From NCBI GenBank assembly GCA_000934665.2, contig JYFJ02002827.1, forward strand, positions 1 through 50,296: a stretch of DNA of 50,296 nucleotides. Direction: 5' to 3'. Origin of the DNA: Catajapyx aquilonaris. Its lineage: Eukaryota. The notes under the pieces are model-generated. The model saw only the letters and a program-made list of their open reading frames with translations. It was not told where the DNA came from and ran no database searches. The translations under genes were made by a program, and so were the position numbers. Below, in pieces: positions 6,819 through 50,296 of this stretch (the first letter of the stretch is position 1; each line of letters begins with the position of its first letter).

Positions 6819-6886
<68 letters not shown>

Positions 6887-8395: not shown

Positions 8396-8426
<31 letters not shown>

Positions 8427-8867: not shown

Positions 8868-8938
<71 letters not shown>

Positions 8939-11011: not shown

Positions 11012-11032
<21 letters not shown>

Positions 11033-11080
<48 letters not shown>
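11033..11080. repeat. (TTA)n microsatellite
   Basis: Directly visible. Confidence 0.95.
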
Positions 11081-11082
<2 letters not shown>

Positions 11083-11775: not shown

Positions 11776-12729
11776 ATGATGACGAAGTTCTTTCTACGAG
11801 TAGTTTCTGTTGCTATTTTTGTGTACGCCGTGACAGTGATGGTTACAAACACCGCCAGAGCTGTGCACGACCTGTACCGTGTCCTGATGGTTTTTTTCCC
11901 CAGCCTTCCTGTTATTGAGGACGATGTTTACCATGTTGTAAACTCCGTGATTGCAGTGAGGAGATACGCCGTCCAAGCATGTTTCCTTGCGGTTCTGTTC
12001 ATAGTGAAAGGTAAGGATACTTTCGCCAAAATTTATGGGGCGGTATGTTTGCAGTATAGGTACTGTACCTAATGCACTAACATATCCTGGAAAATGTAAG
12101 CTTCTTTAACAGGAATCACATGAGCACAGGCTGGCCAGTTTGACTATACTGTATACCTTAGCACAAGGCTATTAAACATGTTGTCTTTGTCTTTTAGAGA
12201 GCTGGGCACTTCTGATACTTGGTTTGGAGTTATGCGGCAGTGGTGTAGCAGGTCTGGGCCTAATCCTGGTAGCTCTATCGAGACGTCTTGTGGCTTATTT
12301 CATATGCCTGGCACCGATACTTGCAGCAACGGGTGTTGTAATTTTTGCCTGGTGGAAGGCAAATATGAAGAATACTAGGCCTACTACTAGGCCTACAACG
12401 TTCAGGTAGGCATATTTTGATACAGCTTGCTATAAATATTGATGGATTTTGGGGATATGTTTTTAACTCCCTTGATCTCTGCATCTTCCGATAGGGTAAA
12501 ACGTCGCAGACACAAGATACCAAGGGAATTGTTGTGCGTCATTTGTATGCATCAAGTCAAATCAGTACTAATGGTGCCCTGCGGCCATTTGATTGTGTGC
12601 AAGACCTGTCGACATCTCATCACCTCCAAGCAATGCATCGTGTGCAGGCAAGATATAAGGGGGATGATTGGCAACATACATTTCGAGGCTAACCCCTTCC
12701 TGGCATTGAGGACACAAGCTCGCCTATAG
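11776..12729 (+). CDS. Multi-pass membrane protein with C-terminal C3HC4 RING (RNF26-like E3 ligase), ~225 aa
   Basis: Exons 11776-12010, 12198-12405, 12495-12729 join in frame via GT-AG introns (phases 1 and 2). Four hydrophobic segments, then CVICMHQVKSVLMVPCGHLIVCKTC...CIVCR. ATG choice is an inference. Confidence 0.8.
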
Positions 12730-19591: not shown

Positions 19592-21896
19592 GCGACCATC
19601 TTGTTCTAGGGCCATATTGCAAGAGAAGCATCGTTCTGCCGCATTGCAAAAATGGCATCCGCACTCAACATCTCGCTTTACTCTTACCTGTGCGTGTGCT
19701 CTAACAGGAAGAGGACATCTAGGATGGATCGAAGGATACGTGACTGAGAGAATGAATGGGTGAATGATTGGATGGAAAGATGGATTGGATAGCAGGATGG
19801 GGCTCCACAGACATTACTGTCTATAGGTGGCCATTGCTTTTCTTTTCGCGCAGGAACACTCTGTTTCTCATCCTTCATTTTTGTTTAAAGTTTCTGTGCA
19901 AACCCAAATTTTGGTTGGTTTTTGTGCAATCCACAGCTTTCGTAGCACTCCTGTCTGTGTTACTCCAAAAATCATGGGATGAAGTTGCGGTTTTGTCTTG
20001 TTGATGTTGTGTAGAGAAAATAGCAGCATCCTAATGTTTCCCTTTACAGCTCCTGTTATGTACTATTGTTCGATTTCTGCGCTTAGAGCAACTTGTGGGA
20101 GTGGAGGTAGAAAAGTGTTGGAGCCTCACATGTTGCAGTTTAGGTGAGAAGAGACTTAAGAGAAACCGTTTCTAGTGCCTGCAGGGGGGGCAGGGAGAAA
20201 TGTCTTCCCAGGTGACTGCCATATTGTGAGATTCAGATATATGAGCAGCATTGCATACAACAGCATTTTTTGTCGCTACAGTGTGCCAAGGCTAAACTAA
20301 TAGCTACAGTCGAGAAGTATTGGATTTTTTTCAATATTTCCTAGGCCTGTTTTTTCATGCTCCCAAATCATGCGAATAAGTGACCACCCCATTCATTTCA
20401 CCAAAACTAATGTTCCATGTTGCTCAAAAAAAAAAGTGAACTCGTGTAAAATACTTTCTTGATCATCATTTGTTTCATTACTTGGACTGCATTGGCCCTT
20501 CATTGGTGCAAAATGACTATTTAATTGTTAAAATTTTTGGCTTGATGAAAATGATAAAACATTGTTGGCTGAGATAAAGACTTCATTTTTATGTGATCTG
20601 TTTGCCTCTCTCCATTTTATCCTGACGTAATTTGCACGTGCCCTGTAAAAAAAATAACCTGGGAAAAAGAATACCAAAAAATGTCCTAAGGTCATAAACA
20701 GTGCTATAATAGTGGGCTGATGTAGTGACCTCTGCATTCTCTGGGCTGGTAGTCCAATAAGAGGCGTGATCAGAAAATGTTTGTATTCTGACGTAAATAT
20801 GCCAACCTCTCGGTTCATTGGCATGTTTGGTACTGATTTATATGCTCGGGGAGTAACGTTATAGATCAAAGAAGGGAGAAGGACTTTTATCCACTTCTTA
20901 TACTACTAAAGTTGACGTACATTTTTGGTACCAAAACTTATGCTAACCCTTCTGTTGGATGTTTCAGAAAGCTTTTATGATCACGATACAAACATTTCAA
21001 TCCTCAATCGTTTGTGATGTGGGATAAAAGAATCGGTTTTACTTGAGGTTACGCCGCATAAAGGCTCACTGTTTCAGTCAGTGATATTATTGTACAGCAT
21101 TTCAAATAAACATGACCTGGCTCCTTCATCACGACATCCACGTATCACCTGAAGGGATTTTTTTGTCTCATATCAGCCCTTTTTTTTAAAAAAAATGATC
21201 AATAACGTATGGAGAGGACTAAACCACACGCACGCATTACCTGGAGACCGCATTGCTATTCTCTTTCATATCGATTGGCCAAATCAAAAGGAAGGAAGTG
21301 AGTGGACAGCGCAGTAAGGACAAAGCATGGCAATCAAGCGTGAGTATTTATAATCACTGTGATAAATAGTTCAGTAAAGCACATTATTTTTCTTAGAGCA
21401 CAATAATTAAATGTAATTTAAAACGCTACAGTACATTTATGCAAAGTGCTGTGTCCTAATTGCAGGAATTGACTGTATTTTTTTTAGATATGTTACGTTG
21501 CACTCAGAAAATGACTTTTATAATACCTAAACACCAAATATTTTCTCCATGATTAGTGGGTATAAACTAATAAGAATAATACGAGTCAGGTGTTGGGTCT
21601 GGAAAATGCAACTTAGAATGGTTGTATGGACTCAAATTAAGGGACCACCTCCATTGTCTATTGTAAAATCATATGCATAATCGGATATTTTTCCTCACTG
21701 CGCTGACTTGGATAAATTGCTAATTCCATCTTCTCTGATTCAATCTAAACTACTAAAAGCAACATTACTGTAATAGCCTTACCGTGACAAGGCCATACTG
21801 TAACTATTAGAACTGATGTGCGCTGTGGTTTCAAATAGATCTACAGTGGCAAAAGTAAGCAATAAGAAGTAGCTACACTATAGTATACCCGAAGTA

Positions 21897-28300: not shown

Positions 28301-31300
28301 ACCTTCGGATGTTTGGGGCATGGTGACTGGAACAGCACATCTCGTCCCAAACTCATTGGTAGGTTACTCCAGAATTCATCTTCATGGCATAATAGAGCAT
28401 ACCATTTGGTCTATTAGTAACATTGAAATCACTAAAATGTGAACAAAACGAGTTGCCTCTGGGACTATAATAAATAATCGTCACTAGTTTTGGGACACAA
28501 AAGTGTCCCCGAACGATATTTTTCTTTCCATTTGTTTCTACCGTTTGTCACGCGGTTTGGCATAATGACTCGAACTTCGGGACCATTTTTAATAAACACT
28601 ATACCTTTAGGACCAGTTTAGGACGCTTCAGTAAAGTATTTTAAACTCACCTTCTCTTTATGATGAGTCATGAACGTTGCATTTCAGAAACTCTTTTAAG
28701 TGTAGATGTAGCCTTAGTGAGTTGCGGACCTCAACATGTTCTGATTGCAAGTGGTGAAGGAGTCGTATACTCCTGGGGTCGCGGCGATGGAGGTCGCCTC
28801 GGTCTGGGTCACGAAAATGACTGGTGAGAGTTCACTTGATTTGAGAGTTAACATAAGTTATATTCAGTGTACGCTAGTAAAATTCATTGATTTCAGTTGC
28901 TTGCCACAGGAAGTCATTTTGCCAGAAGATGTAAGGATCAGAAAAATTGCATGTGGTGGAGACGGAACAATTTTAGTTGCAGAGGATGGTGTTATGTATG
29001 CTTGTGGCAACAATGCCGCAAATAAACTTGGATTGGAAGAGAAAAAAGGAATCATGGCTTTTGCACGTCTTGTACCTTTGAAGGTGAGCTACACCATATA
29101 CTTAAGTTAATATATTTTGATTATGTTATAACCAAGTAATTGCATGACACAATTTGACATGGACATACAGTAGGCCTACTGTATAAGAACACTAGGTTGA
29201 ATCTTCATTCAACACCTTGACATTTTTTCATGGTCACTTGGAGTTTCAACTTACAAAGGCTATATAAGTTCCACTCTATTATTTTTTAAAAAAACTTTGT
29301 TACAATATTGCTACAGTATTGTTACACCATGGCTTCCCTATTGCGTAATAAACCCAGAAACGACGTCCCTGCTGTAACATGTGGGTTTCTTTACTAGATG
29401 TGTTGCCTGCCTCGAAACAAGCATGAACGATCAAACAATACAGAATAGTGATTTATTTTCGAATATTTAAATGGATATGTTTATATGTTTTATATGTTTA
29501 TATGTTTTTTTCTCTATAGTCCAGAGATGAAAAGGTGTTAAAACCTCGAAAGATTCGGTCAGTTCCTTGTCCTGTGGTGGAAGTTACCATGGGCCCTACC
29601 TTCACTGCTGTTCTCACAAATGAGGGAAACGTCGTGACATTTGGAAACAACAGTGAAGGTCAGCTTGGAAGAGGGAACTCCTATTACTCACCAAGCCCTG
29701 CACCTGTCAAAATAATGGACAACAAAGGTGTTTCTGTAAGTGCCGTAACTTATCAGATGAAAAGCGACTCCCACATAAGCTTACAGGGTGATCATTTGAC
29801 AGCCAATAAAATAACCATGCAAAAGTAACTTCTAAAAATAAGCAATCATGCCAACAAATAGCCATAGCGATCGGACAAGTATTTTGGATCACCCTGTATA
29901 CAGGGTGGTCCAAGTTCAAGTGTCGTTTTATAACGGCGATTAATAGAAGCACTTAACGATGACGTAGCAGCGACGTGTAAAATTTCCCACTTCGATTGCA
30001 CCGAAGATGTGCCGAAGTGGGACATTTTACGCTTCGCTGCTACGTCATCGCAAAATCACTGCTATTAATCGCCGTTATAAAGCGACACTTGAACTTGGAC
30101 CACCCTGTATACTCGTACAGTAGTAGTGCTGAAGACAGCAAAAATATTATATTGTTAATCTTCTCTCCCAGATGATACAATGTGGGCCTACATTCATGAT
30201 GGCAGGTACTGCTGACAATGCCCTGTACATGTGGGGAACCACATACATAAACCCCGATACGCCATCAGAGGTGAGTGTGAATTAAATAGGCCTACACGGT
30301 GTACTATCCCTATATGTTGATGATCCTCATATAGGGGACACCCCTGGAATTCAAATGCGAAATATTTCTGATTAATTCTTCTACTCTTTCCACCTCCCCT
30401 CTGGGGATTGTTAACATGGTATGTGACACCCTGTATATGTCCAAAACATGGCCTACTGTATAAATAATTGTCTTTTGTTGGGAACGATTTAAAAAAGGCT
30501 TCTTTCCAGCTCTCTGATTTGACCACAACAGGATCATCTTTGATACCAGGATCCTCTGTTCCATCATTGCCTCATGATTTTGAGGTGTAGTACCTATTGT
30601 CATTTCTTAGAGATATGTCTTACAATAACTATGTGACTGAATTCCAGAAGCAGAGGGATTCTGATTTTAGCGGCAGTAACCGCAGTAATTCACGTCTGCT
30701 CTCCTCTTACAAGCAAGACATCCGACTGCGACAAATAGTCACCGATCCTCAGGAAATTTTGGCGTAAGGTTTATGGTGCAAAACTTTGAAAGTTATGATT
30801 GAGAGACCCCTATACTGGTGGGTATTTGAATTTCTGTTGGACTAACTGTTTTAAATTACAATAACTGATTAATAATAGTAATAAATTGCTTAGTCTAAAC
30901 ATCTCTAGCCACTGTCAATGATGCTCTGAAAGTAATAATCAATTACCGCACTTCTTACAGACTGTACTCATCACCATCTCAAGTCCATTTGGGAGAAACG
31001 GTGAACTTGGTCAGCTTGCACTCCCAACACCAAAACGTCTACATTATGGTCGACACCACAGCTCCTCTTGCTAAATTGCCTGCAAACCTAAGGCCCCTTG
31101 AATCCGGGACACAGGACACACTTATATCAACTACAGTGACGCAGAAGAATAGCCAAGCTACGTCCCTTGCACCACATGTAGAAATATCTGAGGATGAATA
31201 TGAAGCTACTGTAGGACCGGTGAGAACTTATCAGATGACCTATAAAATGCTTGATTTACTTACAAAAATACCATATCTCATGGAGCAAGCCTACTAAAAG

Positions 31301-31980: not shown

Positions 31981-34900
31981 TCAATAACGCCTGCGACGTT
32001 TGTCTGGGATGCCTGTTTTGGGACTTGGCACGGAATATCCGGGTGACCTCTGAAAAAAATGCACAATTCTTAATTGCATTCGTGCAAACTTTTCCACCAA
32101 ATGCTAAGATCTGCGTTATGTAAATCTATGTTATTCACTAGTATTTACAATAAATAAATACTTTGTCACTGTCACTTCTGAGCCAGAATGAACAAATGTT
32201 GAGTTTTTACTGTCTTTGAATCTGTAATCTTATAATGATAAAAGGGTTTTCATTGCATTTTTTTTTTTTAAATTCATACCCCGTTATCAGCTCTAGGGGG
32301 GAAGTTTTTTTTTGTTTTGCCTGGAACTCTGCTTTCATTTTACTGCGCTTCTTGGGATAGGATAGGGGCGGAAGGAAGCGGCTGTGGCCTATTATAATTA
32401 CGGAAACAACTCCGGAATTTTCCTGGAAGGACCGTGGGAAACCACAGAAAACCACGGTCAGAGTTGCCGGCCCCGGGATTTGATCCCAGGACCTCCCGAT
32501 TAGCAGTCGGACACCACATCCCCTACTCCAAACTGCTTCGGTTTTTCATTGCATAATGTAAGAGATACATGAGTATTACCGCTCTTTCAGCAAAGGCTGA
32601 CAGTCCCATATGCAAAGCTTCCATCGTCATACCCTGCTGAACTGTGATAGCCATGATTCCCATACTTTGAGCCTCTACAATTCCAGATATGTCTTCATCG
32701 AAAAACAACACTTCGTGGGGTGAAAATTGTGATACACGCAGGATCCTAAGGAAAACAACACATTGGAATTAGCTGTAGCCTACACACTTCGCCCTCATAG
32801 TATTACCCTAGCAGGTTACCCGGTGCGGGTATGTTGGGGTGCTGATAAAGGTATAGGGGTACGTATAATTTATGAAGTTTGTTTGTAAAATGTGTGTACC
32901 AAATACCATACACTCGAAACTCAATATGCCTTAAAATAGGCCTTATTACAAGTCACAATAAGCCAGAGTTAGTCACTATCTGTGATAGTTTTCTCTTATT
33001 GCGTATTGTGACGTCTTCCATTTGACCTACCCTTTTGTCACACGGACTGACCTTCTTAAAGTGGTTACGGCCACTTTCTCCTTGTAGGTTCTGTTGGGGG
33101 GAATTTTCGGCTTGGAAGCCACTCCACATGTCCGCCGGACGGTCGGTCGGCCGTGCGTGGCCATGAACCATTGTGTGGGTTCCAGAATATGTTTCGGAAG
33201 CTACACCACATTGCTCGCACCTTCGCTCTACCCTCACATTACCCCCGCCCCTTACAAATTTCCTGGCTACGCCGCTGTAAGGAGGACCTAGCTGCTCCTC
33301 ATTATCCGCTGGCACCCCAATATTTGGGAAAAGCCATGATGTATATGAATGAATGAATTATTGTGAATGCCATCTACATATTATATATTATATAATACAG
33401 TATTATAGTATTGGCTTCTTAGCCATTGAAAATGAATTAAAGTAAAGTTGTACCCGGCACAGCTATTATCATATCGTTTAACTGTTATACAGGGACATAT
33501 AGCATAATGGTAAAATATAGTTGACATTGTAATGTGACTAATGTCTATCATATTGTAGGCCTAATATAGTTGACATTGTAATGTGACTAATGTCTATCAT
33601 ATTGTAATATAGTTAACATTGTAATGTCTATCATATTGTAATATAGTTAACATTGTAATGTGACTAATGTCTATCATATTGTAGGCCTAATATAGTTAAC
33701 ATTTGTAATGTGACTAATGTCTATCATGTCTATCATATTGTAATATAGTTAACATTGTAATGTCTATCATATTGTAATATAGTTAACATTGTAATGTCTA
33801 TCATATTGTAATATAGTTAACATTGTAATGTCTATCATATTGTAATATAGTTAACATTGTAATGTCTATCATATTGTAATATAGTTAACATTGTAATGTC
33901 TATCATATTGTAATATAGTTAACATTGTAATGTCTATCATATTGTACTGTAATATAGTTTTCATTATATTTTGTCATAGTAGCGGTGATTATGGTAGCAG
34001 TTATTTGTCAATCGCGCATATATGCACCTCCCTGTGTGTGACGGTTATTTTTTCCAGGTGACGTCAGTCGCGTCACGCGTCAGCATCCAAAATCAAAGAT
34101 GGCGACGTGCTGATTTATATTATTCCTTGTTTTGTTTGCGGATTTCCCTGGTTTGCCATGTTTTAGCGAGGCAAAAGGCCGTTGGCGTGAAGAAGGTAAA
34201 AAGAAGCAAGGTGAGTGGTTCAATAATGCTGTCAGAATTCGGTCGTGAAGGGCTCTAAGTCTTGGCTCTTGAGCGAGTCACATTTCATGCTGACTGCATT
34301 TTAATGAAAGTGTGAAAGGTACTTGTGTTGGTGTTGTCTGTGTGGCCTTAGAGTGACCGCACCAGTACTGTCCGTCTTGTGGGTCCCGCCCAGCGAACGT
34401 CATTGTGGCTCTGCCAATAAATAAATATATAACGAACACGTGGCCTCTCAGTCTTTTCCTGGGCCCCTGCAGTATGTAGGTAAGGTTTGCAGTTTGCAAA
34501 GCCACAATCATGTGTCCATGGCGGGTATCAGGAAACGAAAATGTGCAGTGTTAAATAGTGGGATCGTAATTAATGAGTGAAAATGCTAGATTGTATAACT
34601 TGCTGTATTAAGTGATTTTCAGTATTGCACTGCATCTGTTGCAATTGCCTTATTTTTAATCATTTTCAGGGCCATGTCGTTGGTGGAAAAAATCAAGAAG
34701 GAGATCAAGGAGGAAGAGGAGGAGGAGGAGGAGGAGGAGGAGGAGGAGGAGATCAAGAAGGAAATCAAGGAGGAGGAGGAGGAGATCAAGGATGAGATAA
34801 CGACAGAGGAGACATGGCTTCTTCAGATAAAGGAGGAGATGCCTTCCTGTCTGGAGGATGACCCCAACTTTTCTGATGGCTACCTTACAGGGGATAAGGC

Positions 34901-37900
34901 AGGTGTTAAAGTGGAGGAAGTTGAAGGCAGTGGGGTTGAGGTAATAAGCTTGTGGAATATCTCTGTTAGTTAGTTAGTCTGTAAGGTATATGGGTGATTC
35001 TCCAAAAACTTACCAATACTATTTCCCGGCATAATAACTCAAAAATGGATTGACTGAGAGAGTTGATTTTTTTAAACGTTTGTAGAAGCAGTTGACACCT
35101 AGCCATCAACATGCAAACAAAGAAACTGCAAAGAAATGTCTAATGGCCTAAAATCACTCCTCTTGGCATGTCCCAATCTTATTTTAAAGCATGCTATATT
35201 TTCTTACAATTTTATCATTAACATTAGACAAGTTCCAATACTATAATTAAATTGTACACACTTGAAGGCATAAAACAACATTTTAAAAACAATTTAATCA
35301 TTTGGCACGACCTTGCTGCATCACTCCAAATGTGTCCCAAGTTTTCATGTTACTCTCCCGGATCAGGATATTTTTTCAAAATTTGCAATGAAACAAAGGG
35401 ATTTTTAACTCAGCTATTTGGCAACACTGCTTCTCCATGACACCTTGATTTAACTACGGATCGCTGTGCAAGAGGTACGTCTCCTAGTGGGTTAAAAAAT
35501 TAAGGAGCTTTAAATTCAGTTATGTAGCACATTTTGCGTTCACACTCCTGGCTCACTTTTCTATGGCACATAATAACTCAAATGTTTTGAAATAAATGTG
35601 ATTCCATGGCATGAAGGAATGTTATCACCTGACAGATTTCTAGAGTCAACGTTTATTCTGGACATTGATATAATTATTGATATTAAGCCAGATACATCCG
35701 AAGGGAATTCTTCCGACTCCCAACATTCCTGACAATAATATTTAATAATATTAATATTTTAACAAAATTATCGTTATTGAACAAGATGCGACTGAAAAAA
35801 TTGGCCATCATCAACTAGTGTCTGAAAAATTAATATTAAAATTCCGGTAGCTTTTTAGTGCCTGCTGTGGCCATGTCAAGTGCAAAGAAATTGCAAATTC
35901 TCGACTTTTGAGCCCAGGTTTTCACTACCTAGTTCACTACTTGCGGGACAGATATTTAAAAACTGAGTTTCACTTTTTGATCTAATATTATGAGGAACAA
36001 CGTCCAATAAAAATTATTGCGGTTAACTGCAAACTCAATCCTGGAAGGTTCCAACCGGTTTCAAGCATTTTAGAATATGAGAGTTAGGTCCCCCTATTTT
36101 TACCTTGTTTGTGACCTCATATAGAGTAAATGTGAATTTTTCCTCATTTTAAAAACAAGTTTTGAAAGTCATTAATTTTTGCTTTGAAAATGGCAAGTTT
36201 TTGGAGAATCACCCGTATATGAGAGTATATGTGTAAATCAGATCATAACCGTGATATCAGAGGACTGCTCATTGTCGTCCTTAATATGACACTTAACCAT
36301 TACAAGCATTTAATTTCAGCCATCAGTGGGACATGAATTGTTGTCAGAGGACAGTGGTTTGATCCGCACTGTCAGTGTCAAACCAGGATCAGAAGCAGTG
36401 GAAGGCCCTTGCAGAATGGAAATTCTGAAGAGTTTCAGGATGAAAAAGCAGACCCATTCAGAAGAAAGTCTGGAGAAAGGAAAGGTGGGTCACATGGCAT
36501 ACAAAGCAGAATTATTGTATTGTTAAAATTTTTATGCTATATTTTTTTTGTAGGCAAGCTCAGATCAAGAGAGCACTAAAGTGCAGACTTTTTTCCCTTG
36601 CTCTGTCTGCGAAAGAGTGTTTGATGAGGAAAAGAAGGCCAGAGCCCACAGACGTACTCACACTACTTACCCGTGTGATGTTTGTGGTAAGATATACAAG
36701 ACTTGGGGAACTCTGATCAGCCACAAGGAAGCCCATCCAGGAGAAAAGCCCCACAAGTGCACCAGATGTGACAAGTCATTTTTTTCGGAGTTCAAGCTAC
36801 AGCTTCATGCTTCCTCCCATGACGCTGGTGATGGTGCTGAACTCGGGTGTCGCATTTGCAAGGTGACCTTCAGCAAAAGGAGAGCATTTTGGGCGCATAC
36901 CAAAGTTCATCAGCGAATTCATGTTTGCAATATTTGTGACAAGGCTTTCAAATCTGACTCTGACTTACTGAGGCATGCAACTGTACATGTGGAAGAGAAA
37001 CCATTTGCTTGCGATGTTTGCAACATAAGATTTAAATCTATGATGTCCATGAAATATCACAAGCTATCGGTGCATGTTGAGCAGGGGCAATTATTTAAAT
37101 GCAAATTCTGCCCCTCCACTTTCAAGAGAGAGGAATACCTCAACCGTCACTTGGGAAGATACAGGGGGACAGGCCCAGGGAGCACGAGGATACATAAGCA
37201 ACATCCACCAAAACCAGTCATTTGCCCCTATTGTTCTAAGGCTTTCAGAGGCAAGAGGGACGCAGAAGACCATATTCGGCAGAAGCACACTGGGGAGAGG
37301 CCTTACACTTGTGACATTTGCGAAAAAAGATTTGCAGGTAGACGCCATATCGCAAAGCATTTCAAGGATGTACACGTAAGGAAAAGCCACTCAAACAGCA
37401 ATAAATGAGTGAAATGTTTTTAAACTGACACTTGTGTTTGATTATTATGTGCGATGAATCCAAAGCAGTGCAGTGGTTGGGACATGGAATTTTAGATACA
37501 TTTTAATACTCTCAGGTCAAAAAATGTGCTATGATTTCTATTTTTTTAAAAAAAGGTATTCAGATGGCAAAAATAATGTAAATGAAAATTATGAGGCTGC
37601 CTACAAGCAGTCCTCTATTGGCAATAAGCATCTTTAGCCTACATCAACTGTTTTTACTTCTTTCAGACCTATTTTACTGCTTGCATACAAATGCTGGTGA
37701 AATCTCCATTAAACATAATAATAAATAATAATACAGCAATTATGTAACTAATGTACTATATCATATTATAACTAATATGATATAATAATATGATTAACAA
37801 ATATACTGTGCATTATAACCAATATGTCGTGGTATTATGTACTAATATCTAATGTCATGTCATGGAACACTAATATTTTTTCATGATATAGAGGCTAATA

Positions 37901-41089: not shown

Positions 41090-42334
41090 CACAAGCGACA
41101 AGGGTGCTCTCCGGACACAGAATATGATTTTTCCTACTGGCTTATAACTCTTGTAATCGGAGACGCCTCCACTGCTTTCTACTGAAAACATGAACCAGCC
41201 GCGCTCTAATATTAGGCGTATTCAGTAATTAGCGGAAAATCAGATTAGAGTCACGTGATGTCTGAGTTGCTGGCTCCGCCCGTTTAAGCTGATTTGCGAA
41301 CGGTTTGTTTGCAATAATATTTTCGAGGAAGGGCGGGTGGGTGGAGTGGCGTCTATTTCAAAAATTCCGCACTTCTGACCAGATAGTGCCGATATCGTGT
41401 TGGCCCATATTTTTGACGTTCCAAAATTAATTGTGGCGGTTATTCCATACGTATTACTACGTTTTAACATTGATAAATGTTAACAGTGACGACATCACTT
41501 GAATAAAATATAGACCTCACACTGCTTATTAAAATAGTCTGGTCTGCATTAATCAAATAGCCAAGAAGCGTTAGTCCATTTTCTCATTGCTGTCCTTAGT
41601 TCGACTTCAGTAGTGTTGCAGTTTGTAATAATTTGGCCCGCAACTTTCATTTAGAGAATGTTCCCTTGTCAGTGGGATCCAGCACGTGTTCATCGAATTA
41701 TTTTTATGCATTTTTCAGTCTCCACTAATCTTGGGAGTTTGTGGCAGATTCGAGTAGATTTGCCCAGTTCAAATCACAATAGTTAAAGGCACACAAGTGG
41801 TGAACTGGATATCGACTTGAAAAGACTTTTTAACATCACAATGACTATTACATCGTTTATTAAGACAAAATTGTCCTGTATGAGTGACAAAAAAAATTCA
41901 CGAAATTTGTTCAGCAAAAATGATGCCTTGTGAAATACCAGAGGCGCGTATTGGTTTTCTGACGGGTAGTTTGGTTGGCCCGCGCCTCCCTTGGGTTGGC
42001 TCCCCTGGGGTAGTAGCGGTTGGCGCGCTTGCGGAGGGGCCGCCCAGCGGGGGCATCGTGAAACAGGGAGAAGGAGAAAAAATTAATGGAACGTAAGAAT
42101 ATGTATACCAAATGCTGGCTTTTGAAGAGTGAGACAGTTTAGTATGAATTTTACCGTCAAATTAAAGTCAATCTCATAGCAGATTACTTGAAGCGGCTAC
42201 TTGTAAATGTCAAATTTAATAGCAGTTTAAGGTAGCAGCTTCTCAGAGGTAGCGACTACGAAGTAGCAGCTAAGCTACTTTCGTCCGATCATTGCTTCAG
42301 TGTTCAGTGTTCGGTGATCGTCTGGCAGTTGAAG

Positions 42335-43493
42335 ATGGAAGAGAAGGAGCCCTTGATCAGCACGGAGGAGTGCCCGGAGGAGGAGAAGGAGGAAACAATG
42401 GGTTGCATGCATTACAAAAGGAAATGCAAGCTCATTGTGAGTATTGTCAGAATGTATTTAGAATGTATGGGAATGTATGAGAACATTCAAATTGTTCCGC
42501 AGTCGCCATGTTGTGGACTCGTCTACACATGTAGATTTTGCCACGATGAACGTGAGGACCACACTTTGAACCGTCGGGATGTGCAGGAGGTTACCTGCAT
42601 GAAGTGTGAGGCTCGCCAGGAGGCACGGAGGGATTGCGAGAACTGCGGTTCTGTCTTTGGAGAGTACTTTTGCGCCTATTGCAAGCTGTTTGATGACATT
42701 GACAAGCAGCAATATCATTGCGATGGGTGCGGGATATGCCGCATCGGAGGCAGGGAGAATTTCTTCCATTGCGAGAAGTGCGATATGTGCCTCCCTGTGC
42801 AGCTCCAAAACAACCACAAGGTAATTGGCTGCTGTATGTATGAATAAACCGAGGGGTTAGTCACTTATGAAGTCCTTCGTACACCGAGACTGAAGTCCAG
42901 GTGAAGTCCAGCAGAACAAAGTTCGTGAGTCCTTGGAAGTCTGTGAAGTCAATCGTACACTACAGTATCAAGTGACTGACCCCTCAGAAAATATTATCAG
43001 TAGAATTGATATTAAATGTGCCATGTTTATGTTCCAGTGTATTGAGAAAGTGTCACGGTCTAATTGCACTGTGTGCCTGGAGGACATCCATACGTCCCGT
43101 ACACCCGCACACATTCCACCATGTGGACATCTTATTCACCGGAATTGCTTTGAGGATCTTCGCAAGGCAGGACATTACGCTTGTCCCACATGCCAGGTCT
43201 CCATGGTTGACATGTCAAGGGTATGTTTCATTACGCCAATGCAGGTCTTGGGACAGTTCAAACTAGATTCGTTGGTTCTTACAGATTTGGGCGCAGCTGG
43301 ATCATGAGATCCAGACGACACCAATACCGCCAGAGTGCCAGGACTACTGTGTCAACATCCTCTGTAGGGACTGCCATCAGGTAAAAGAAATGTGGTTGAA
43401 TGTGGCGTTGAGCGTTTTCCGTCCAAAATCAATGCCAGGTTTTTGTGTGTTATGATGAATATGGCTGTTTATAGGCATCCTAGATGGGGGGGG

Positions 43494-43526
<33 letters not shown>

Positions 43527-43928
43527 GGTGGGTGAAGTAAATTGTCTTCTGTCTGATTGAAATAGTTTCATCAGCTTTCATAGGATGTATCAAATGTAGT
43601 CCTGACGTTTGGCTCTTTTCAGGTGGTTTTGATAGAGTACCATGTGGTTGGTCTGAAGTGCAGCCTTTGCGGCTCGTACAACACATGCATGGAGGGAGCT
43701 CCGTACAGAGTACCAGGAAGAGGGACTGAGCAGTCAAACCATGGAGAAGTGGGCGAAGGAGGGGAAGGTGGCTCAAGGATGGACGCAAGCCCGTTGGTCA
43801 TCGATGAGAATGGCGAGGGTGAACAAGAGGATGATTACGAAGAATTTGCACAGGAGGTCAGCGAAGAGGAAGAAGGGGCTGTGGGTGGGGTTGTAAATGG
43901 AACCAGCAACGAGAACTCCGAATGTTAG
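42335..43928 (+). CDS. RCHY1: RING finger and CHY zinc finger protein (Pirh2), copy 1, ~334 aa
   Basis: Exons 42335-42436, 42503-42820, 43038-43220, 43285-43380, 43623-43928 (1005 nt). CHY (GCMHYKRKCKL..PCC..CRFCHD), CTCHY (YHCDGCGICRIGG), RING-H2 (CTVCLEDIHTS..PCGHLIH..C..CPTC), zinc ribbon (CRDC..YHVVGLKCSLCGSYNT), acidic tail. Confidence 0.95.
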
Positions 43929-44815
43929 TCTCAATCTTGGTGCACTGAGACTCTTGTAACTTATTCCAAAATTGGCAGCCTTTACCATGGTCTGCACTTA
44001 ATTTTTTCCAAAATACTCATATGGTGTCAAAAAAAAAAAAGTGGGATGGTAAATTGCAGTAGGCTGAACCATGGCTGTGTTAAAAAGAGATTGATGGATT
44101 TTAGATGGGTGGGGTATGGGGGAGAGAAATGCATTTCGTGTTTATGTGAGGTATCATAAAAAAATAAATTTAATCGATGTGTTAGGATTCATTTTCTGTC
44201 TGGATTTTAGGGACAGGATACAAATCACCATGTTATATGTTGCAATTTTTGAAGTGTTGAAATAATTTTAATTCCTTTGTAACATTGTGTTGTGCTGATA
44301 CCATCATCACATGGTGTGGAGTAATCATTACAAGCAGAATCTGTATGAGTAAGTTCTTCCCTTCATATTGCACTTCTTTATTTTGAACATTTATTTTTTT
44401 GGTATAAAAAATGGTCATTCAACATTGTTAATATCTCTCCCATTATGCTCCATCTCAATAAATTGCGCCTCAAAAAGCATTGTTTTAATGGCAGAAACAA
44501 ATGAGGACACTAAGTATGTTATCCTAATAGCCCCAAATTCCCTTCCTCCCAAAAAACTATGAAATAAAAAAAGAAGGTCCTAACAGTCTTGTGTTGTTTT
44601 GTTAGACAATAAAAAGTGACACCCTGAAAAGGCCGACAAATTAAATGTAGTGTTTCGCTACACTTAACTTGTCGGCCTTTTCTGAAAATCTTGTTCTATA
44701 TATGCTCTGCAATTGGAAGTGTTTCATACAAGCACGTGACCTGATATACCCTGGAACTCGTAGGGCTCGTAAGACACTGTATGTGCATCAAATACACAAC
44801 TCTCAATAATTGAAG

Positions 44816-45056
44816 ACCTCCGGGGAAGAACGATCAAGGTCCCCTTTTTGTCAAAAATGAGTTACAATATCTCAGAAGATACTTTCACTAGTGTAGAATG
44901 TGATAGTTCGGTCGTGGTTGAGGAGTTGTGGTCATAGGCCACAATGGAAGTCCCCAAAAGTGGGATTTACAAAGGAGCATTATGGGCCTTCGAAATTTAA
45001 AATTTGATTATCTCAGTTTCACCTAAGGTGGACCTTGATCGTTTTTCTCCCGAGGT
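44816..45056. mobile_element. MITE with ~27-bp imperfect IR
   Basis: acctccggggaagaacgatcaaggtcc / ggaccttgatcgtttttctcccgaggt. Confidence 0.6.
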
Positions 45057-45115
45057 TAATGATTTTGTTTTTCTTCACTTGACTACCTCAATAAAATGAT
45101 ATTTATTCATTTATT

Positions 45116-46397
45116 ATGCAGACGACATTATTTTACTTGGAGAGAATCCTCTATATCTACAGAAGATGATTGATGTTTTTTACAAATATACCTTACTCAA
45201 TCATATGGAAGTAAATATAACAAAGACTAAAGTGATGGTTTTCCGGCGAGGTGGTAAACTGTCCAGGTCAGACATATTTTTTGGGGGGCATCTGCCGTTG
45301 GATATCTAGGCGTCCCTTTCACGACGACGGTTAAGTTCCGTACTGCACCCACCTATTTTTTGAACAAGGCTATAACTGCGATTAACGCGCTTTGGCCCAC
45401 TTTAGTTAAAACTAAATTACGTACTATTAAATCAGCACTTAGAATTTCAGATGCCAAAATTTTGCCAATTATCCTTTACAATGCCCACATTTGGGGTTTG
45501 GCACACCTGGAGATCATAGATAAATTACAATAATTTTTTCTTAAAAAAGCTACTAAGCTTACCAAGATGTACCTCGGGCTATTTTGTGCATCTTGAAACT
45601 GGACGCAGACCACTCTCTGTTAATGTCTTTCGCCAATTATATAAATTTTTGATAACCAATTTGAATAGATCGGACAACACTTTGCAAAAACAAATTCTAA
45701 TGTATGCCATAGATGATGCTTGTCCTCACGAGAATGGTTGGTACCAGCCGGTTAATGATATGTTTAATTGCGCTGGTATATCCTTTCAAACTTGGTTAGT
45801 ACATAGAGATAAAATCAATTTCGTGGATCTCCTTACCACTCTTATTAGATGCACAGTAGATACTGACCTCAAACGCTTGGAAGATTCAACTTCTCGCTAC
45901 ACCCACTATAAATATATTAAACTTGATTACATGATGGAACAACATTTTCACTTGGGCCTCCCCCTCCCTGCATTACGTCTATTAACGAATCTGCGCAACA
46001 ATTCTAACACTTTTTGGTTAGATGGATATGTTGTTAGATTCGATGATATTCAGTTCTGTTCTCTTTGTAATGAATCCTCCTCCTTCTTTAACTTGCATCA
46101 CTTTCTTTACTCCTGTCGCTTTTTAAAAAATTGTAGACAGCGTTACCTAAGCGACATGCCTTCCGCGCCACCAAATAAATTCCATCATGTTTTCTGTGGC
46201 TGTTCTAAACCTGACATTCTTAACTTGTATAATTTTTTCACAGATGTAAATTATTGAAATTTTGTGATATTGTTTTGTAGAGTGCTCGGTTTGGACAACA
46301 TTTGTTATTTGTTAGTACTATATATGTGAGTCCCCCCCCTCCCTACTATGGAACGCCAGCTCCCTTTGGGGGGAGTATCAATAAATTTGATTTGATT
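45116..46397 (+). mobile_element. 5'-truncated, disrupted non-LTR retrotransposon (RTEX-like) with TSD
   Basis: YADDIILL..LQKMID..VNITKTKVMVFRRGG, YLGVPF, PIILYNAHIWG, LETGRRPL and C-terminal CSLC..HHFLYSC knuckle, with stops and frameshifts. AATAAA plus (TTTGA)n tail. TSD tgatatttattcatttatt at 45097-45115 and 46398-46416. Clade call tentative. Confidence 0.85.
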
Positions 46398-46881
46398 TGA
46401 TATTTATTCATTTATTCATTTATTCATTTATTCATTTATTTATTTTTCATTTACTGATTTACGGTATTACCCCGATGGGCACACAGTGGCCATTGCGGCA
46501 TTGGGGACACAGGATTGTAGGCTACTGTATATCACAAAATTGTACAATATAATGATACATGCATAGTATATATGCTATAAATTATGAATATAATAATCAT
46601 TATTACATATCATACTATTATGGTTTATTTTTTTTTACTTCTAAAGTAAGATTAACTAACTAATAGTCATTGCATGGCTATACATGCAAATGATTGAACG
46701 TGAATAGGTACAATAAATAAGAGCGGGATTCCGAAATATACTACTATTCTTGATGACGGCCATTTTTGGTGAATTAATTACGGGCTAATTAGAGCCTAAA
46801 AACTTTGGGCCTGGGGTTATTTACGTTCAGGAAGGGATGTAGTATCAGCACCGTAAATGGCATCTTCTCTGTCAGAAGTGC

Positions 46882-46937
46882 AATATTATTGTGACTTCCG
46901 ACCCCACTATAGTGGGGTCGGAAGTCACAATAATATT
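46882..46937. repeat. Perfect 56-bp spacer-less palindrome
   Basis: aatattattgtgacttccgaccccacta|tagtggggtcggaagtcacaataatatt. Confidence 0.95.
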
Positions 46938-46944
46938 TCAGTAC

Positions 46945-46968
46945 TGTTGCTGCTGCTGCTGCTGCTGC

Positions 46969-47049
<81 letters not shown>
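46945..47049. repeat. (GCT)n-(TAT)n microsatellite
   Basis: Directly visible. Confidence 0.95.
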
Positions 47050-47050
<1 letters not shown>

Positions 47051-47128
47051 GGTTTTGCACGGACGTTGACCCATCAGTAATAGCCTACTTAACTCAAGCT
47101 GGTGTGATATATACCCTAAGTTCAGATA

Positions 47129-48047
47129 TCTATATTTATATTTTAGTTAGTTTGTCAGTTTGGATGTTTGTCCCTTATAGAAATCCAGGGGAAGGCCCCT
47201 ACACCGCCTTAAATTAGCATATCGGGGGTTACATTTTCCAAGGAATCTAACGCCGTATGTTTCAGCTTCCAAAAATGAACCTAACTCCCACAACACGCAT
47301 ATTCCCGAATCTTCTCCCTACTTAACATAATTACATCAACTTCTATAGCAACAACAACAATTTATCTTTTCCCAAGTTCGCAATCCCATGGAAATGCCCT
47401 TATGCAACAATACCTATCAAAGTAATGCATTTGCATTGCATCTATATATCTTGCGCATCTTTTTTTTTTACAAGTCCCATCGCCGTAAATTATTCAACTC
47501 ATCCGCCAATTACGCTAATTGGCCCCCTCACGTGAGTTCATATGGTATGGTCATTCTGGGATTTTGTAGATTTGAAATTAGACTTCCCGACACAAATTAA
47601 TACAAAAAAAAATGATTTTTTTCTTTTAAATTACGCAGTGTTGAAAACAAAATTTCCCACCAGTCATCTGTATGTACATTTCTCAAGTTCTTCAGGGCAA
47701 ACAGTTGGAACGAGGTGGGGGTGTGAGGTGGGGTTGAGGGGTCATAGGGTCAAATATTCTGGGGAAAAAAACATGGCTGTGCAGTCTTTTCCTGGGACAA
47801 CTCCATCCCAATTCCTCTTTTTACACATCCATTCAGAATGTCTACATTGACTATACGCTATAACCAAAGCAGGCAATCTATCACAGATAGTGACAAACTT
47901 TGGCTTATTGTAACTTGGCCTTATTTTAAGGTGTATCGAGTTCCAGTGTACGGAACGCAAATTTGACAAACAAACAAACTTCCTAAAATATACCCGTACC
48001 TTTAACAGCATCCCAACATACCCGGGCAACGCCGGGTAACCTGCTAG
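47129..48047 (+). mobile_element. Full-length non-autonomous Helitron (~919 bp)
   Basis: A|TCTATATTTATA 5' end; 3' hairpin CCCGGGCAACGCCGGG followed by CTAG|T; second copy at 16293-16995. Confidence 0.9.
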
Positions 48048-48497
48048 TCACTCATATGCTCACTTTTTTATTTTCGAATAATTAAATCAACCTCGACAAT
48101 AATCGGCCCCGAGTTGGTGCAATACGCAGAGGATGATTGTCTTTACAACATATTAAAATTTGGAAAATTTTAATGTGGTTGTTTGAGAGGCGTAGTAACA
48201 CAAACTGCACTATTGCGACGAGAAGCAATGACCACGGGTAGGGTTTTGTATGTCCTCGTGTAACAGATTCCCTGCTCAACCTCTCGGATGGAGATGTACG
48301 GCATGAGACGGGGCTTGAGTGGGGCTTTCATTTGGTACGCATTGCATATTTTTAGTCCCAATAGGCGCCTCACAGTGACGGCGCAAAGATAGTCGGAATC
48401 CCCATAAGGCGCCACGCTAATTCGTATTCCCGCCTCCCTGCGCTTGCGCTTGATTGTAAACGGGAGGGGAGCGTCTACTGGTACATAATTACTAGTC

Positions 48498-48537
48498 TTA
48501 AGGCCATTTCACAAAAAATTTTGTGAAATGGCCTTAA
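48498..48537. repeat. 40-bp TIR-only palindrome (Harbinger- or Kolobok-like ends)
   Basis: ttaaggccatttcacaaaa-aa-ttttgtgaaatggccttaa; a related half-site (ttttgtgacatggcctt) lies at ~48833-48849. Confidence 0.8.
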
Positions 48538-49127
48538 TATTAATAAACACCTAATTACATAATTATTTTATAGTATCACTCGTGGTATCATTCTGGACTC
48601 TTGTGACCTCTAGCGTCAGACAGAGGAACTTGGGTTGAAAGCAGGGAGAGATAGTCAGAGGCGGAGAAAAAAAGTGGGTGCGTTTTACATCCGATTCGAC
48701 GTTATTCCGGTTCGACACTATTCCGGTCGNTGCAGCAAAATTTTTATTTATATTTATTATTGCCAACAATTGGCAACAATAAATATAAATAAAAAATTTG
48801 CCGCAAGTCGCGCCGTTTGCCGCGCGACATTTTTTTGTGACATGGCCTTTATTCCTTCGACACTATTCCATTCGACGTTATTCCTACGGTCCCAGTATAC
48901 CCATCGTCTTTCACAGCAGAGCAGCACAGTCACTGGCTGGCTTATTTCGTCGCTATGTTCGATTGTAGCAGATTACTTGAAGCGGCTACTTGTAAATGTC
49001 AAAATTAGTAGCAGTTTAAGGTAGCGGCTACAAAGTAGCAGCTACGCTACTTTCTTCCGATCACCACCGCTTCCCTTCCTCTTCTAGTGCTGATAGTCTG
49101 GCACACGGTCAGGTCTGGCAGTTGAAG

Positions 49128-50174
49128 ATGGAAGAGAAGGAGCCCTTGATCAGCACGGAGGAGTGCCCGGAGGAGGAGAAGGAGGAAACAATGGGTTGCA
49201 CGCATTACAAAAGGAAATGCAAGCTCATTGTGAGTATTGTCAGAATGTATTTAGAATGTATGGGAATGTATGAGAACATTCAAATTGTTCCGCAGTCGCC
49301 ATGTTGTGGACTCGTCTACACATGTAGATTTTGCCATGATGAACGTGAGGATCATACTTTGAACCGTCGGGATGTGCAGGAGGTTACCTGCATGAAGTGT
49401 GAGGCTCGCCAGGAGGCACGGAGGGATTGCGAGAACTGCGGTTCTGTCTTTGGAGAGTACTTTTGCGCCTATTGCAAGCTGTTTGATGATATTGACAAGC
49501 AGCAATACCATTGCGATGGGTGCGGGATATGCCGCATCGGAGGCAGGGAGAATTTCTTCCATTGCGAGAAGTGCGATATGTGCCTCCCTCTGCTGCTCCA
49601 CAACCACCACCAGGTAATTGGCTGCTGTGTGTATGAAACAACCGAGGGGTTAGTCACTTATGAAGTCCTTCGTACACCGAGACTGAAGTCCAGGTGAAGT
49701 CCAGCAGAACAAAGTTCGTGAAGTCATTGGAAGTCTGTGAAGTAAATCGTACACTACAGTATCAAGTGACTGACCCCTCAGAAAATATTATCTGTAGAAT
49801 TGATGTTAAATGTGTCATGTTTATGTTCCAGTGTATGGAGAAAATATCGCGGTGTGATTGCCCTGTGTGCCTGGAGGACATCCATACGTCCCGTACACCC
49901 GCAAGCATTCCACCATGTGGACATCTTATTCACCAGAATTGCTTTGAAGATCTCACCAAGGCAGGCCATTACGCTTGTCCCATATGCCAGGTCTCCATGT
50001 TTAATATGGCAAAGGTATGTTTCATTACGCCAATGCAGGTCTTGGGACAGTTCAAACTAGATTCGTTGGTTCTTACAGATGTGGACGCGGCTGGATCATG
50101 AGATCCAGATGACACCAATGCCGACAGAGTACCAGGACTACTGTGTCAACATCCTGTGTAGGGACTGCCATGAG
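49128..50174 (+). CDS. RCHY1: RCHY1/Pirh2 tandem copy 2 (partial; last exon beyond the window)
   Basis: Exons 49128-49229, 49296-49613, 49832-50014, 50079-50174. Same exon sizes as copy 1, intact frame and Zn ligands. Confidence 0.93.
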
Positions 50175-50296
50175 GTAAAAGAAATGTGGTTGAATGTGAC
50201 TTTGAGCATTTTCCTTCCAAAATCAATGCCAGGTTTTTGTGTGTTATAATATATTCTGATGAATAAATCTTTAATAGGCATCCTGGGGGGGGGGGG

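Follow-up and report, generated by a model that had tools for sequence, protein, structure and literature searches.

Two neighbouring Pirh2/RCHY1 genes of Catajapyx aquilonaris with divergence concentrated in the RING and zinc-ribbon half

In human Pirh2 (RCHY1) the groove for alanine-tail C-degrons is built for the most part by the CHY/CTCHY module. In fast-evolving paralogue arrays of ubiquitin-ligase components, such as the TRIM5/TRIM22-type RING ligases and the MATH-BTB/SPOP-like adaptors, the target-binding domain evolves fast and the ligase-docking half is frozen. Solved parts of human and mouse Pirh2 comprise the N-terminal region (2k2c/2dkt), the RING (2jrj/2ecm), the C-terminal domain (2k2d), and the N-terminal domain plus RING with an Ala6 C-degron (7ynx). 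Here we analyse a stretch of 50,296 nt from C. aquilonaris (contig JYFJ02002827.1; the window), which holds two adjacent genes predicted to encode RCHY1/Pirh2 RING-H2 ubiquitin ligases. Their domain order, CHY/CTCHY fingers, RING-H2 and zinc ribbon, is that of the mammalian protein. Unlike human and mouse Pirh2, the Catajapyx sequence has two adjacent copies that differ from each other at 26/101 RING-side positions, and a lineage-specific acidic tail. As in the TRIM5/TRIM22 and MATH-BTB/SPOP-like arrays, duplication appears to have been followed by rapid replacement restricted to certain domains while the other half stayed frozen. However, in the Pirh2 pair it is the degron-reading half that is frozen and the RING/CTD half that is fast, the copies in the window number two, and the two-sequence dN/dS of the C-half is 1.15.

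The start codons of the copies lie 6793 bp apart, and the homology (42177-43453 versus 48966-50247) extends over 1289 alignment columns with 92.2% identity (Table 1). Upstream of 42177 and 48966 the flanks are unrelated. All splice sites visible in both copies are GT..AG, the introns are all phase 0, and the reading frames are intact as far as the window reaches. Copy 1 encodes a protein of 334 aa; copy 2 occupies the window's final 1.57 kb, with no exon 5 before the end at 50296. A tblastn search within the window revealed no RCHY1/Pirh2 copies beyond these two, which are presumably arranged in true tandem.

Table 1. Features of the Pirh2/RCHY1 gene pair and its spacer; differences are counted between copy 1 and copy 2
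Feature	Position	Strand	Remarks
Copy 1 shared upstream stretch	42177..42334	+	homology start; probable core promoter/5' UTR
Copy 1 exon 1	42335..42436	+	34 codons, ATG, CHY finger start; 1/102 nt differ (M25T)
Copy 1 intron 1	42437..42502	+	66 nt, GT..AG, phase 0; 0/66 differ
Copy 1 exon 2	42503..42820	+	106 codons, CHY + CTCHY zinc fingers; zf-CHY 5e-15; 10/318 nt differ; divergent last 8 codons
Copy 1 intron 2	42821..43037	+	217 nt, repeated element inside; 8/217 differ + 1 gap column
Copy 1 exon 3	43038..43220	+	61 codons, RING-H2; zf-RING_2 1.3e-9; 21/183 nt, 13/61 aa differ
Copy 1 intron 3	43221..43284	+	64 nt; 0/64 differ
Copy 1 exon 4	43285..43380	+	32 codons, first half of zinc ribbon/C-terminal domain; zinc_ribbon_6 3.6e-9; 9/96 nt, 8/32 aa differ
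Copy 1 intron 4	43381..43622	+	poly-G/(GA)n microsatellite inside; 7/78 differ in first 78 nt
Copy 1 exon 5	43623..43928	+	zinc ribbon end, acidic tail, TAG stop; zinc_ribbon_6 2.3e-6
Degraded reverse-transcriptase fragment, spacer between copies	45115..45282	+	RVT_1 E=0.0014, below Pfam cut-off
Sole N in window	48730..48730	.	within high-copy repeat DNA, 236 bp before copy 2 homology start
Copy 2 shared upstream stretch	48966..49127	+	homology to copy 1
Copy 2 exon 1	49128..49229	+	alignment with copy 1
Copy 2 exon 2	49296..49613	+	zf-CHY 4.6e-15
Copy 2 exon 3, RING-H2	49832..50014	+	zf-RING_2 2.2e-9; public-run contigs
Copy 2 exon 4	50079..50174	+	zinc_ribbon_6 4.3e-11
Copy 2 intron 4	50175..50296	+	ends with window, in poly-G

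The Pirh2/RCHY1 identity of both copies, proposed in a preliminary description of this DNA, is borne out by Pfam domains and structure matches. In each copy exon 2 carries zf-CHY (PF05495, above the cut-off in both), exon 3 zf-RING_2 and exon 4 zinc_ribbon_6 (PF14599). The zinc ribbon of copy 1 is made up of exons 4 and 5, the latter matched by the same profile, and that of copy 2 is represented in the window by its first half. With copy 1 as the query, the full 106 residues of exon 2 can be aligned to 2k2c/2dkt/7ynx (E ~6e-38) with the Cys/His pattern kept, which covers the CTCHY continuation; exon 2 of copy 2 departs from it in the last 8 codons only. The best structure matches of copy 1 exon 3 are the Pirh2 RINGs 7ynx/2jrj/2ecm, and exon 4 matches 2k2d. 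Copy 1 exon 1 by itself matched no Pirh2 chain in the structure search. All 8 ligands of the RING-H2 (C3H2C3) are kept in both copies.

PMC10148881 names 21 degron-contact residues of human Pirh2. When these are mapped onto the Catajapyx proteins (Tyr23 by motif only), 16 are as in human in both copies, four are replaced alike, and one, human N129, differs between the copies, being Q in the first and L in the second. Every residue named there for the Ala-1 and Ala-2 pockets is identical to human in both copies. With only 1/21 of the contacts named in that source differing between the copies, the earlier label of "E2/substrate-facing" for the fast half is putative. Unlike human Pirh2, both copies have T-P at V157-V158, M at L124 and P at A127. 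The M and the P at the latter two positions are the consensus of our arthropod-dominated orthologue set, which has I at position 162 (V157) and P at position 163 (V158).

Divergence between the copies is lopsided, as the preliminary description had stated: 1/132 N-terminal codons carries a replacement (M25T) versus 26/101 following codons (p=8e-10). The 6793-bp offset, the perfect match of introns 1 and 3, and the segment and replacement counts were all reproduced on recount. Past codon 132, five of the final 8 codons of exon 2 are replaced, and the other replacements fall in exons 3 and 4, where purely silent codon differences number 4 and 1, respectively. The shared upstream stretch, with 21/141 mismatches and 38 gap columns, has diverged further than the coding sequence. 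Among 4949 orthologue pairs, 172 have an N-half identity of at least 0.97, and the lowest C-half identity in this group is 0.842, compared with 0.743 for the Catajapyx copies; the median C/N identity ratio of orthologues is 0.94. Because mean conservation among orthologues is alike in the two halves (0.76 versus 0.73), long-term constraint is similar and the contrast between them points to a post-duplication change.

The replacements are not scattered at random over the C-half, where they are mostly conservative. None of the 12 zinc ligands in codons 133-233 has changed (p=0.022), and mean conservation among 102 orthologues is 0.59 at changed versus 0.78 at unchanged positions (p=0.0003), a conservation of at least 0.8 being reached by 4/26 changed and 43/75 unchanged positions. 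Derived states are P151T, M215I and Y219C in copy 1 and some 13-15 sites in copy 2, and at position 182 the consensus Leu has been abandoned in both. With 96/102 outgroups, changes unique to copy 2 outnumber those unique to copy 1, but on the median counts (7 versus 3.5) this asymmetry is not significant (binomial p=0.34).

We estimated substitution rates (NG86) for codons 1-132 (N-half) and 133-233 (C-half); all rate tests rest on two sequences, copy 2 ending in intron 4. The N-half has dN 0.003 and dS 0.073, the C-half dN 0.129 and dS 0.113 (pN 0.118, pS 0.105). Nonsynonymous divergence of the C-half (28.5/240.8) exceeds that of the introns (15/425, p=1e-4), dN being ~3.6 times the intron divergence, and it also exceeds the local (p=0.0036) and all silent sites (p=6e-4). 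In contrast, there is no excess over the synonymous rate, either locally (dN/dS 1.15, ~1.1-fold, p=0.82) or for all synonymous sites (p=0.49). At orthologue-variable C-half codons pN is 0.183 versus a pS (all) of 0.086 (p=0.03, a value from one partition and one threshold) and versus 0.035 in introns (p=1e-7); for the corresponding codons of the N-half pN is 0.008. The diversifying selection suggested earlier is thus conditionally supported, against introns, pooled silent sites and, at orthologue-variable codons, synonymous sites, but not for the whole C-half against synonymous sites. Nonsynonymous divergence of the C-half is above the intron rate and level with the synonymous rate. Synonymous sites themselves have diverged more than introns (8.6% versus 3.5%, p=0.018), so that whether omega exceeds 1 in the C-half hinges on the choice of the neutral yardstick. 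Two nucleotide changes occur in 4/26 replaced codons; multi-nucleotide mutation events could inflate the C-half replacement counts.

The reading that we favour, and to which we give about an even chance, is that the copies are young head-to-tail paralogues whose ligase half shifted in rate after the duplication, positive selection most likely having contributed. Duplication of a ~6.8-kb unit would have given rise to two head-to-tail RCHY1/Pirh2 genes, in both of which the N-terminal CHY/CTCHY module would have stayed under strong purifying selection. The regime would have changed in the NTD-RING linker, the RING-H2 surface, the RING-CTD linker and the first half of the zinc ribbon. These segments would gain replacements at the neutral rate or faster in both lineages, and more rapidly in the downstream copy, while zinc ligands and conserved core are spared. 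The ligase/partner-binding half would have undergone subfunctionalisation or neofunctionalisation, and the two sequences, of which copy 2 is incomplete, suggest a recent split of function between the copies. If so, both proteins, presumably both expressed, would read the same kind of degron end and differ in which E2 they use, in self-association or in the partners bound through the CTD. We take the assignment of RING positions to E2 contacts from general RING knowledge, and the nature of the functional difference is predicted from sequence. The rate shift is a probable, rather than proven, adaptation.

Relaxed constraint, under which a redundant ligase half drifts neutrally in one or both copies, is the strongest competitor, although we consider it unlikely. 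It could take the form of partial degeneration to a ligase-weak degron reader or of early pseudogenisation of copy 2, for which no exon 5 is seen in the window. The C-half dN/dS is indeed not distinguishable from 1, the replacements are mostly conservative, and residues that are near-invariant among orthologues are gone, P151 and Y219 from copy 1 and H165 (H165S) from copy 2. On the other hand, the zinc ligands are intact, the replacements avoid conserved sites, variable-site pN surpasses both synonymous and intron divergence, and frames and visible splice sites are intact; we infer that positive selection, not mere relaxation, has most likely acted. The loss of P151, Y219 and H165 would also fit decay.

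A false duplication appears distinctly improbable; here copy 2 would represent the alternative haplotype of one locus, or a stray paralogue contig, placed after copy 1 when a heterozygous genome was scaffolded. As is typical of such heterotype duplications, the second copy is short and bracketed by the N at 48730, in a high-copy repeat, and by the poly-G window end; none of the contig pieces among the matches listed bridges the N, which is, however, likelier to be an ambiguous base than a gap. The silent divergence of ~4% would be within the allelic range of a very polymorphic invertebrate, and the 3' flank of copy 1 also has variant contigs that are 3-8% different. Depth was taken from coarse contig depths of public runs of one sample (three same-sample runs). 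Public-run contigs at copy 2 exon 3 cover 49874-50043 with 0 differences at a depth of 20.7-24.5, compared with 19.5-32.8 for unique spacer contigs, so that the half read depth of an uncollapsed haplotype is not seen, although with such coarse values the test is weak. Summed contig depth reaches ~245-290 in bin 42719-42989 (copy 1 intron 2) versus 39-117 in neighbouring bins, and ~10,000-12,000 in bin 48681-48951 around the N. In the same sample exon 3 occurs in yet another variant, with 43162 G>T at a depth of 30.7-48.4, hence more than two versions exist, at least three for exon 3, unlike in false duplications. As we read the sequence, this variant would restore the ancestral Leu at codon 182. 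A protein divergence of 26% in one half of a conserved gene, far above the normal allelic level, is hardly credible for alleles, and the unrelated upstream flanks likewise argue against this scenario. Further variants in public contigs around exon 5, at 43602 (intron 4, 21 nt upstream), 43626, 43627 and 43633, hint at Pirh2 variants beyond the two copies.

Together with 43162 G>T, these variants could be taken as traces of a donor. Such a donor would be another Pirh2 copy of greater divergence, perhaps a retrocopy devoid of introns, from which exon-limited conversion brought in the divergent patches while the introns kept the true young age of the pair. Synonymous divergence of exon 3 (5.5/39.7) is higher than intron divergence (p=0.006), and dense clusters of changes adjoin the unchanged intron 3. 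Yet the conversion tracts would have to end at either boundary of intron 3 with the intron not deleted, the exons are alike in synonymous divergence, and tblastn found no donor within the window. Moreover, the import itself would have an omega of ~1 over codons 133-233, which leaves the fast protein evolution still to explain. We thus regard this possibility as very remote.

Least probable of all is the patchy gene conversion considered in the preliminary description, in which the copies would have exchanged sequence so that their 5' half and short introns became alike while the RING-side exons escaped. Introns 1 and 3 show no differences and, pooled post hoc, are closer than the other silent sites (0/130 versus 26/429, p=0.0014), but divergence at synonymous and intron sites taken together is even between N-half (5/137.5, 3.6%) and C-half (21.5/421, 5.1%; p=0.65), the N-half, though frozen in protein, has 5 synonymous differences, the longest difference-free run of silent-type sites (110) is unexceptional (P=0.17, 5000 permutations), identity around intron 3 extends only ~2-3 nt past the intron on each side, and the shared upstream region is strongly diverged. 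Given even silent divergence and no over-long identical run, such conversion is unnecessary. In minimal introns of 64-66 nt, a large share of the sequence consists of splice signals. At the observed silent rates P(0 of 64) for intron 3 is 0.04-0.10, and the lack of differences in introns 1 and 3 carries less weight than it seems to. The upstream stretch of copy 1 contains repeated GTAGC(A/G)GCTAC-like motifs.

The window is eukaryotic DNA (G+C ~40%), and the closest protein matches, among those listed, are arthropod. Its last part holds a head-to-tail pair of segments, 42177-43453 and 48966-50247, which share 92.2% identity across 1289 columns and contain one RCHY1/Pirh2 gene each, here called copy 1 and copy 2. 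All introns of copy 1 are of the GT..AG type and in phase 0, without exception. Copy 2 reaches the window end in a poly-G run, the counterpart of which in copy 1 is a poly-G/(GA)n stretch. Both copies give Pfam matches to zf-CHY, zf-RING_2 and zinc_ribbon_6, and the nearest solved structures are those of the three Pirh2 domains and 7ynx, the Pirh2-Ala6 complex. All sequence features visible in the window agree with the predicted membership of both genes in the RCHY1/Pirh2 family. A tblastn search of the 50 kb window revealed no third Pirh2 copy, and Rfam gave no match in the Pirh2 locus.

Features of the Pirh2 pair and of the surrounding DNA
Feature	Position	Strand	Remark
Copy 1, five exons	42335-42436, 42503-42820, 43038-43220, 43285-43380, 43623-43928	+	334 residues
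Copy 2, first four exons as in copy 1	start 6793 bp downstream; window end (50296) inside intron 4	+	exon 5 outside the window
Open frame, 634 codons	4685-6589	-	stop to stop; no Pfam match
(ATT)n microsatellite	46950-47050		second match at 6819-6922
Repeat block	8359-8975		dense in direct and inverted repeats
tRNA match	19170-19243	+	Rfam RF00005, 46.7 bits; overlaps start of next feature
Open frame	19192-19704		weak, sub-threshold Ras-family match
RCC1-repeat exon	28745-29110	+	upstream of the pair
Tandem repeat	33514-33946		period ~49-126 nt
C2H2 zinc-finger exon	36554-37408	+	multi-finger; upstream of the pair

The amino-terminal half of the protein (codons 1-132, comprising the degron-reading CHY/CTCHY zinc fingers; N-half) differs between the copies by a single replacement, M25T. 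In the carboxy-terminal half (codons 133-233, the RING and zinc-ribbon side; C-half), replacements affect 5 codons among the final 8 of exon 2, 13 of 61 exon 3 codons and 8 of 32 exon 4 codons; purely silent codons number four in exon 3 and one in exon 4, and none of the Cys/His ligands is altered. The copies do not differ at all in intron 1 (66 nt) or intron 3 (64 nt); in intron 2, 8 of the 217 aligned columns are substituted and one further column is a gap. All of these counts, which had been reported in the preliminary description, were correct on recount. The NTD-RING linker carries nine replacements in codons 133-149, or ten in codons 133-151 if residue 151, which belongs to the first Cys pair of the RING, is counted too. 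Five positions are replaced in the RING (151, 165, 175, 182 and 191), and in the RING-CTD linker seven of nine codons (197-205), on both sides of the unchanged intron 3; the rest of the 26 replacements lie in the zinc ribbon, around its first strand. By analogy with RING domains in general, residues 151 and 191 would lie in the two E2-touching loops and residue 182 just after the E2-contacting helix position; an 'E2-facing' cluster of replacements is putative. After conservation weighting, clustering of the C-half replacements is not significant (P=0.083 in 9-codon and P=0.26 in 19-codon windows).

The contrast between the two halves is unusual within the Pirh2 family. A protein search with exon 2 gave a best match of 69% identity among 120 of 444 matches, and 102 of the 120 listed matches were used as orthologues, excluding 18 proteins of at least 460 aa; the codon conservation classes derive from these orthologues only. 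A near-length protein search with exon 3 returned four distant matches and no same-species fragments. Among the orthologues both halves are about equally conserved (mean 0.76 for the N-half vs 0.73 for the C-half; median C/N identity ratio 0.94). We compared 4949 of the 5151 possible pairs, namely those with enough aligned columns. In the 172 pairs with an N-half identity of at least 0.97, the C-half identity has a mean of 0.973 and a minimum of 0.842; the corresponding values for copy 1 vs copy 2 are 0.991 (N-half) and 0.743 (C-half). Since the C/N ratio relative to the orthologues is ordinary for copy 1 (0.955) and slightly low for copy 2 (0.896), the acceleration postdates the duplication. 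When changes are polarised by the orthologue majority state, copy 2 is derived at ~13-15 positions (e.g. Q134L, K140Q, S148C, N149D, H165S, R175Q and D198N) and copy 1 at P151T, M215I and Y219C, two of which are near-invariant in other orthologues. At position 182 neither copy has the consensus Leu, copy 1 carrying Arg and copy 2 Thr. Copy-2-unique changes outnumber copy-1-unique ones with 96 of the 102 outgroups (median 7 vs 3.5); on counts of this size the difference is not significant (p=0.34).

According to the Nei-Gojobori method (NG86), dN and dS are 0.003 and 0.073 for codons 1-132, and 0.129 and 0.113 for codons 133-233. We tested the nonsynonymous differences of the C-half (28.5/240.8) against five neutral yardsticks. 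They are in excess over introns (15/425, p=1e-4), over local silent sites (synonymous plus intron; p=0.0036) and over all silent sites (p=6e-4), but not over the synonymous sites of the C-half (p=0.82) or all synonymous sites (p=0.49). The verdict on positive selection, and with it the diversifying selection invoked in the preliminary description, hinges on the choice of the neutral yardstick. The accompanying claim that the RING-side exons diverge faster than their introns comes down to the replacement sites of the C-half, which outpace any silent class. Synonymous sites are more diverged than introns (8.6% vs 3.5%, p=0.018), and the two short introns, taken as a post hoc class, show 0/130 differences vs 26/429 in the other silent sites (p=0.0014). 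Their likeness could reflect splice-signal constraint, the introns being minimal.

Plain relaxation of constraint is the alternative that comes closest. The replaced C-half positions are less conserved among the 102 orthologues than the unchanged ones (mean 0.59 vs 0.78, p=0.0003); conservation reaches at least 0.8 at 4 of the 26 changed vs 43 of the 75 unchanged positions, and all 12 C-half zinc ligands are spared (p=0.022). The C-half has 54 orthologue-variable codons, and their pN of 0.183 is higher than the 0.086 of all synonymous sites (p=0.03) and also exceeds the divergence of introns (p=1e-7) and of the pooled silent sites (p=9e-7). In the N-half, with 50 such codons, their pN is 0.008. 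As relaxation alone lifts pN no higher than the neutral rate, this result, which comes from one partition and two sequences, favours adaptive change. Of the 26 replaced codons, 4 differ at two nucleotides, so that multi-nucleotide events may inflate the replacement counts. The locus most likely represents real young paralogues, the ligase half of which underwent a post-duplication regime shift. This shift is probably, albeit not demonstrably, adaptive.

Since copy 2 is confined to the window's final 1.57 kb, behind the sole N (48730), and this N sits in DNA of a summed contig depth of ~10,000-12,000, a false duplication has to be weighed, in which copy 2 would be a divergent haplotype of one locus. 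We consider this unlikely in view of the contigs from four public runs (three of a single sample, the fourth of a second study; none recorded as RNA), although these contigs are short (most 150-350 nt). Exon 3 of copy 2 (49874-50043) is matched with 0 differences at a depth of 20.7-24.5, which, as far as coarse contig depths allow, resembles unique spacer contigs (19.5-32.8) instead of half their depth. A third exon 3 variant, unlike either copy, is present at a depth of 30.7-48.4; according to our own reading of the sequence, its change, 43162 G>T, brings back the consensus Leu codon at residue 182. Two to four contigs around the start of exon 5 have other letters at 43602 (intron 4) and at 43626, 43627 and 43633 (exon), and some contigs along the 3' flank of copy 1 (43889-44484) are 3-8% divergent. 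These observations, from contigs that are not placeable and a sample that is possibly the assembly's own source, argue that a single sample contains over two versions and, if it was not pooled, over one locus. Those matching neither copy may be the unseen remainder of copy 2, alleles or more paralogues. The second-study run contains exon 2 of copy 1 (42562-42745) with 0 differences. At 49223-49493 copy 2 has almost zero contig cover, and among the few pieces listed no bridge spans the N or both copies, which weighs neither for nor against the pair. Two contig joints (43055->48498 and 48048->49637) were dropped as unreliable, with a side of only 21.

Patchy gene conversion sparing the RING-side exons, which had also been proposed, is rejected as unnecessary because silent divergence is uniform from one half of the gene to the other (5/137.5 in the first half, i.e. 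synonymous sites and intron 1, vs 21.5/421 in the second, i.e. synonymous sites and introns 2-4; p=0.65), the longest difference-free run is unexceptional (110 of 624 silent-type sites with 25 differences, matched or exceeded in 17% of 5000 permutations), and the upstream stretch common to both copies, with 21/141 mismatches and 38 gap columns, has diverged further than the coding sequence. The N-halves are thus alike because the protein is conserved, rather than through recent copying. The equal GC content of the C-halves (0.515 vs 0.512) gives no hint of biased conversion, and their transition:transversion ratio (17:18) is similar to that of the introns (7:8).

Acceleration limited to one domain after tandem duplication is a known type of event; its direction is the less usual aspect here. 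In TRIM5-type and MATH-BTB arrays the target-binding end is the fast-evolving part, whereas in the Pirh2 pair it is the RING/CTD half that evolves fast, next to a frozen degron-reading half. Pirh2 is a ligase of ancient origin. Among the papers listed by our literature searches, none dealt with Pirh2/RCHY1 duplication or fast evolution. The pair would exemplify an E3 in which the catalytic side, not the substrate side, evolves fast after duplication, and one degron reader with very different RING/CTD halves would be a natural experiment on the role of the second half (E2 choice, oligomerisation, extra substrates). If the pair were an assembly artefact or due to plain relaxation, it would be an ordinary case. 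It is also conceivable, yet improbable, that the pair belongs to a conflict-driven larger Pirh2 family with a constant Ala-tail reader and a RING/CTD face diversified by recurrent positive selection, driven for example by escape from viral or selfish-element ligase inhibitors or by pairing with different E2s. In that case the third exon 3 variant and the variants around exon 5 would belong to an arms race on the ubiquitin system across the whole lineage, and the TRIM5 or MATH-BTB pattern would be inverted.

One paper names Pirh2 as one of two E3 ligases that target alanine-tailed products of stalled ribosomes. We mapped the degron contacts through alignments to 2k2c and 7ynx, using the contact list in PMC10148881. 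Of the 21 human contact residues on that list, 16 are kept in both copies and 4 are changed alike in both; the last one, human N129, is Q in copy 1 and L in copy 2. For Tyr23 the placement relies only on the CHY motif and on an orthologue conservation of 0.94, because a PDB search with exon 1 alone returned no Pirh2 chain.

The genes upstream of the pair (C2H2 zinc-finger, RCC1-repeat and weak Ras-like) appear unrelated. Between the copies, the spacer contains a degraded reverse-transcriptase fragment, an (ATT)n microsatellite and several high-copy repeats. The single N is surrounded by nested repeats (48470-48900) that form hairpins and have a very high copy number, and public contigs link 48729 to 48849 via three other letters, i.e. 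a form without the central palindrome. Intron 2 of both copies (bins 42719-42989 and 49494-49764) holds a repeated element; in the three same-sample runs its summed contig depth is 245-290 in copy 1 and 206-294 in copy 2, compared with 39-117 in the bins flanking the copy 1 intron, and a third sequence variant has six changes at 42910-42935. Approximately 60-150 bp upstream of the ATG, a near-palindromic GTAGC(A/G)GCTAC-like motif occurs in three to four copies (42190-42275 and 48980-49050), which may be a conserved promoter element. Exact matches to its 11-nt version in the window are confined to these two upstream stretches, with a one-mismatch match at 33289-33299; three motif matches were reached in 8 of 100 shuffles.
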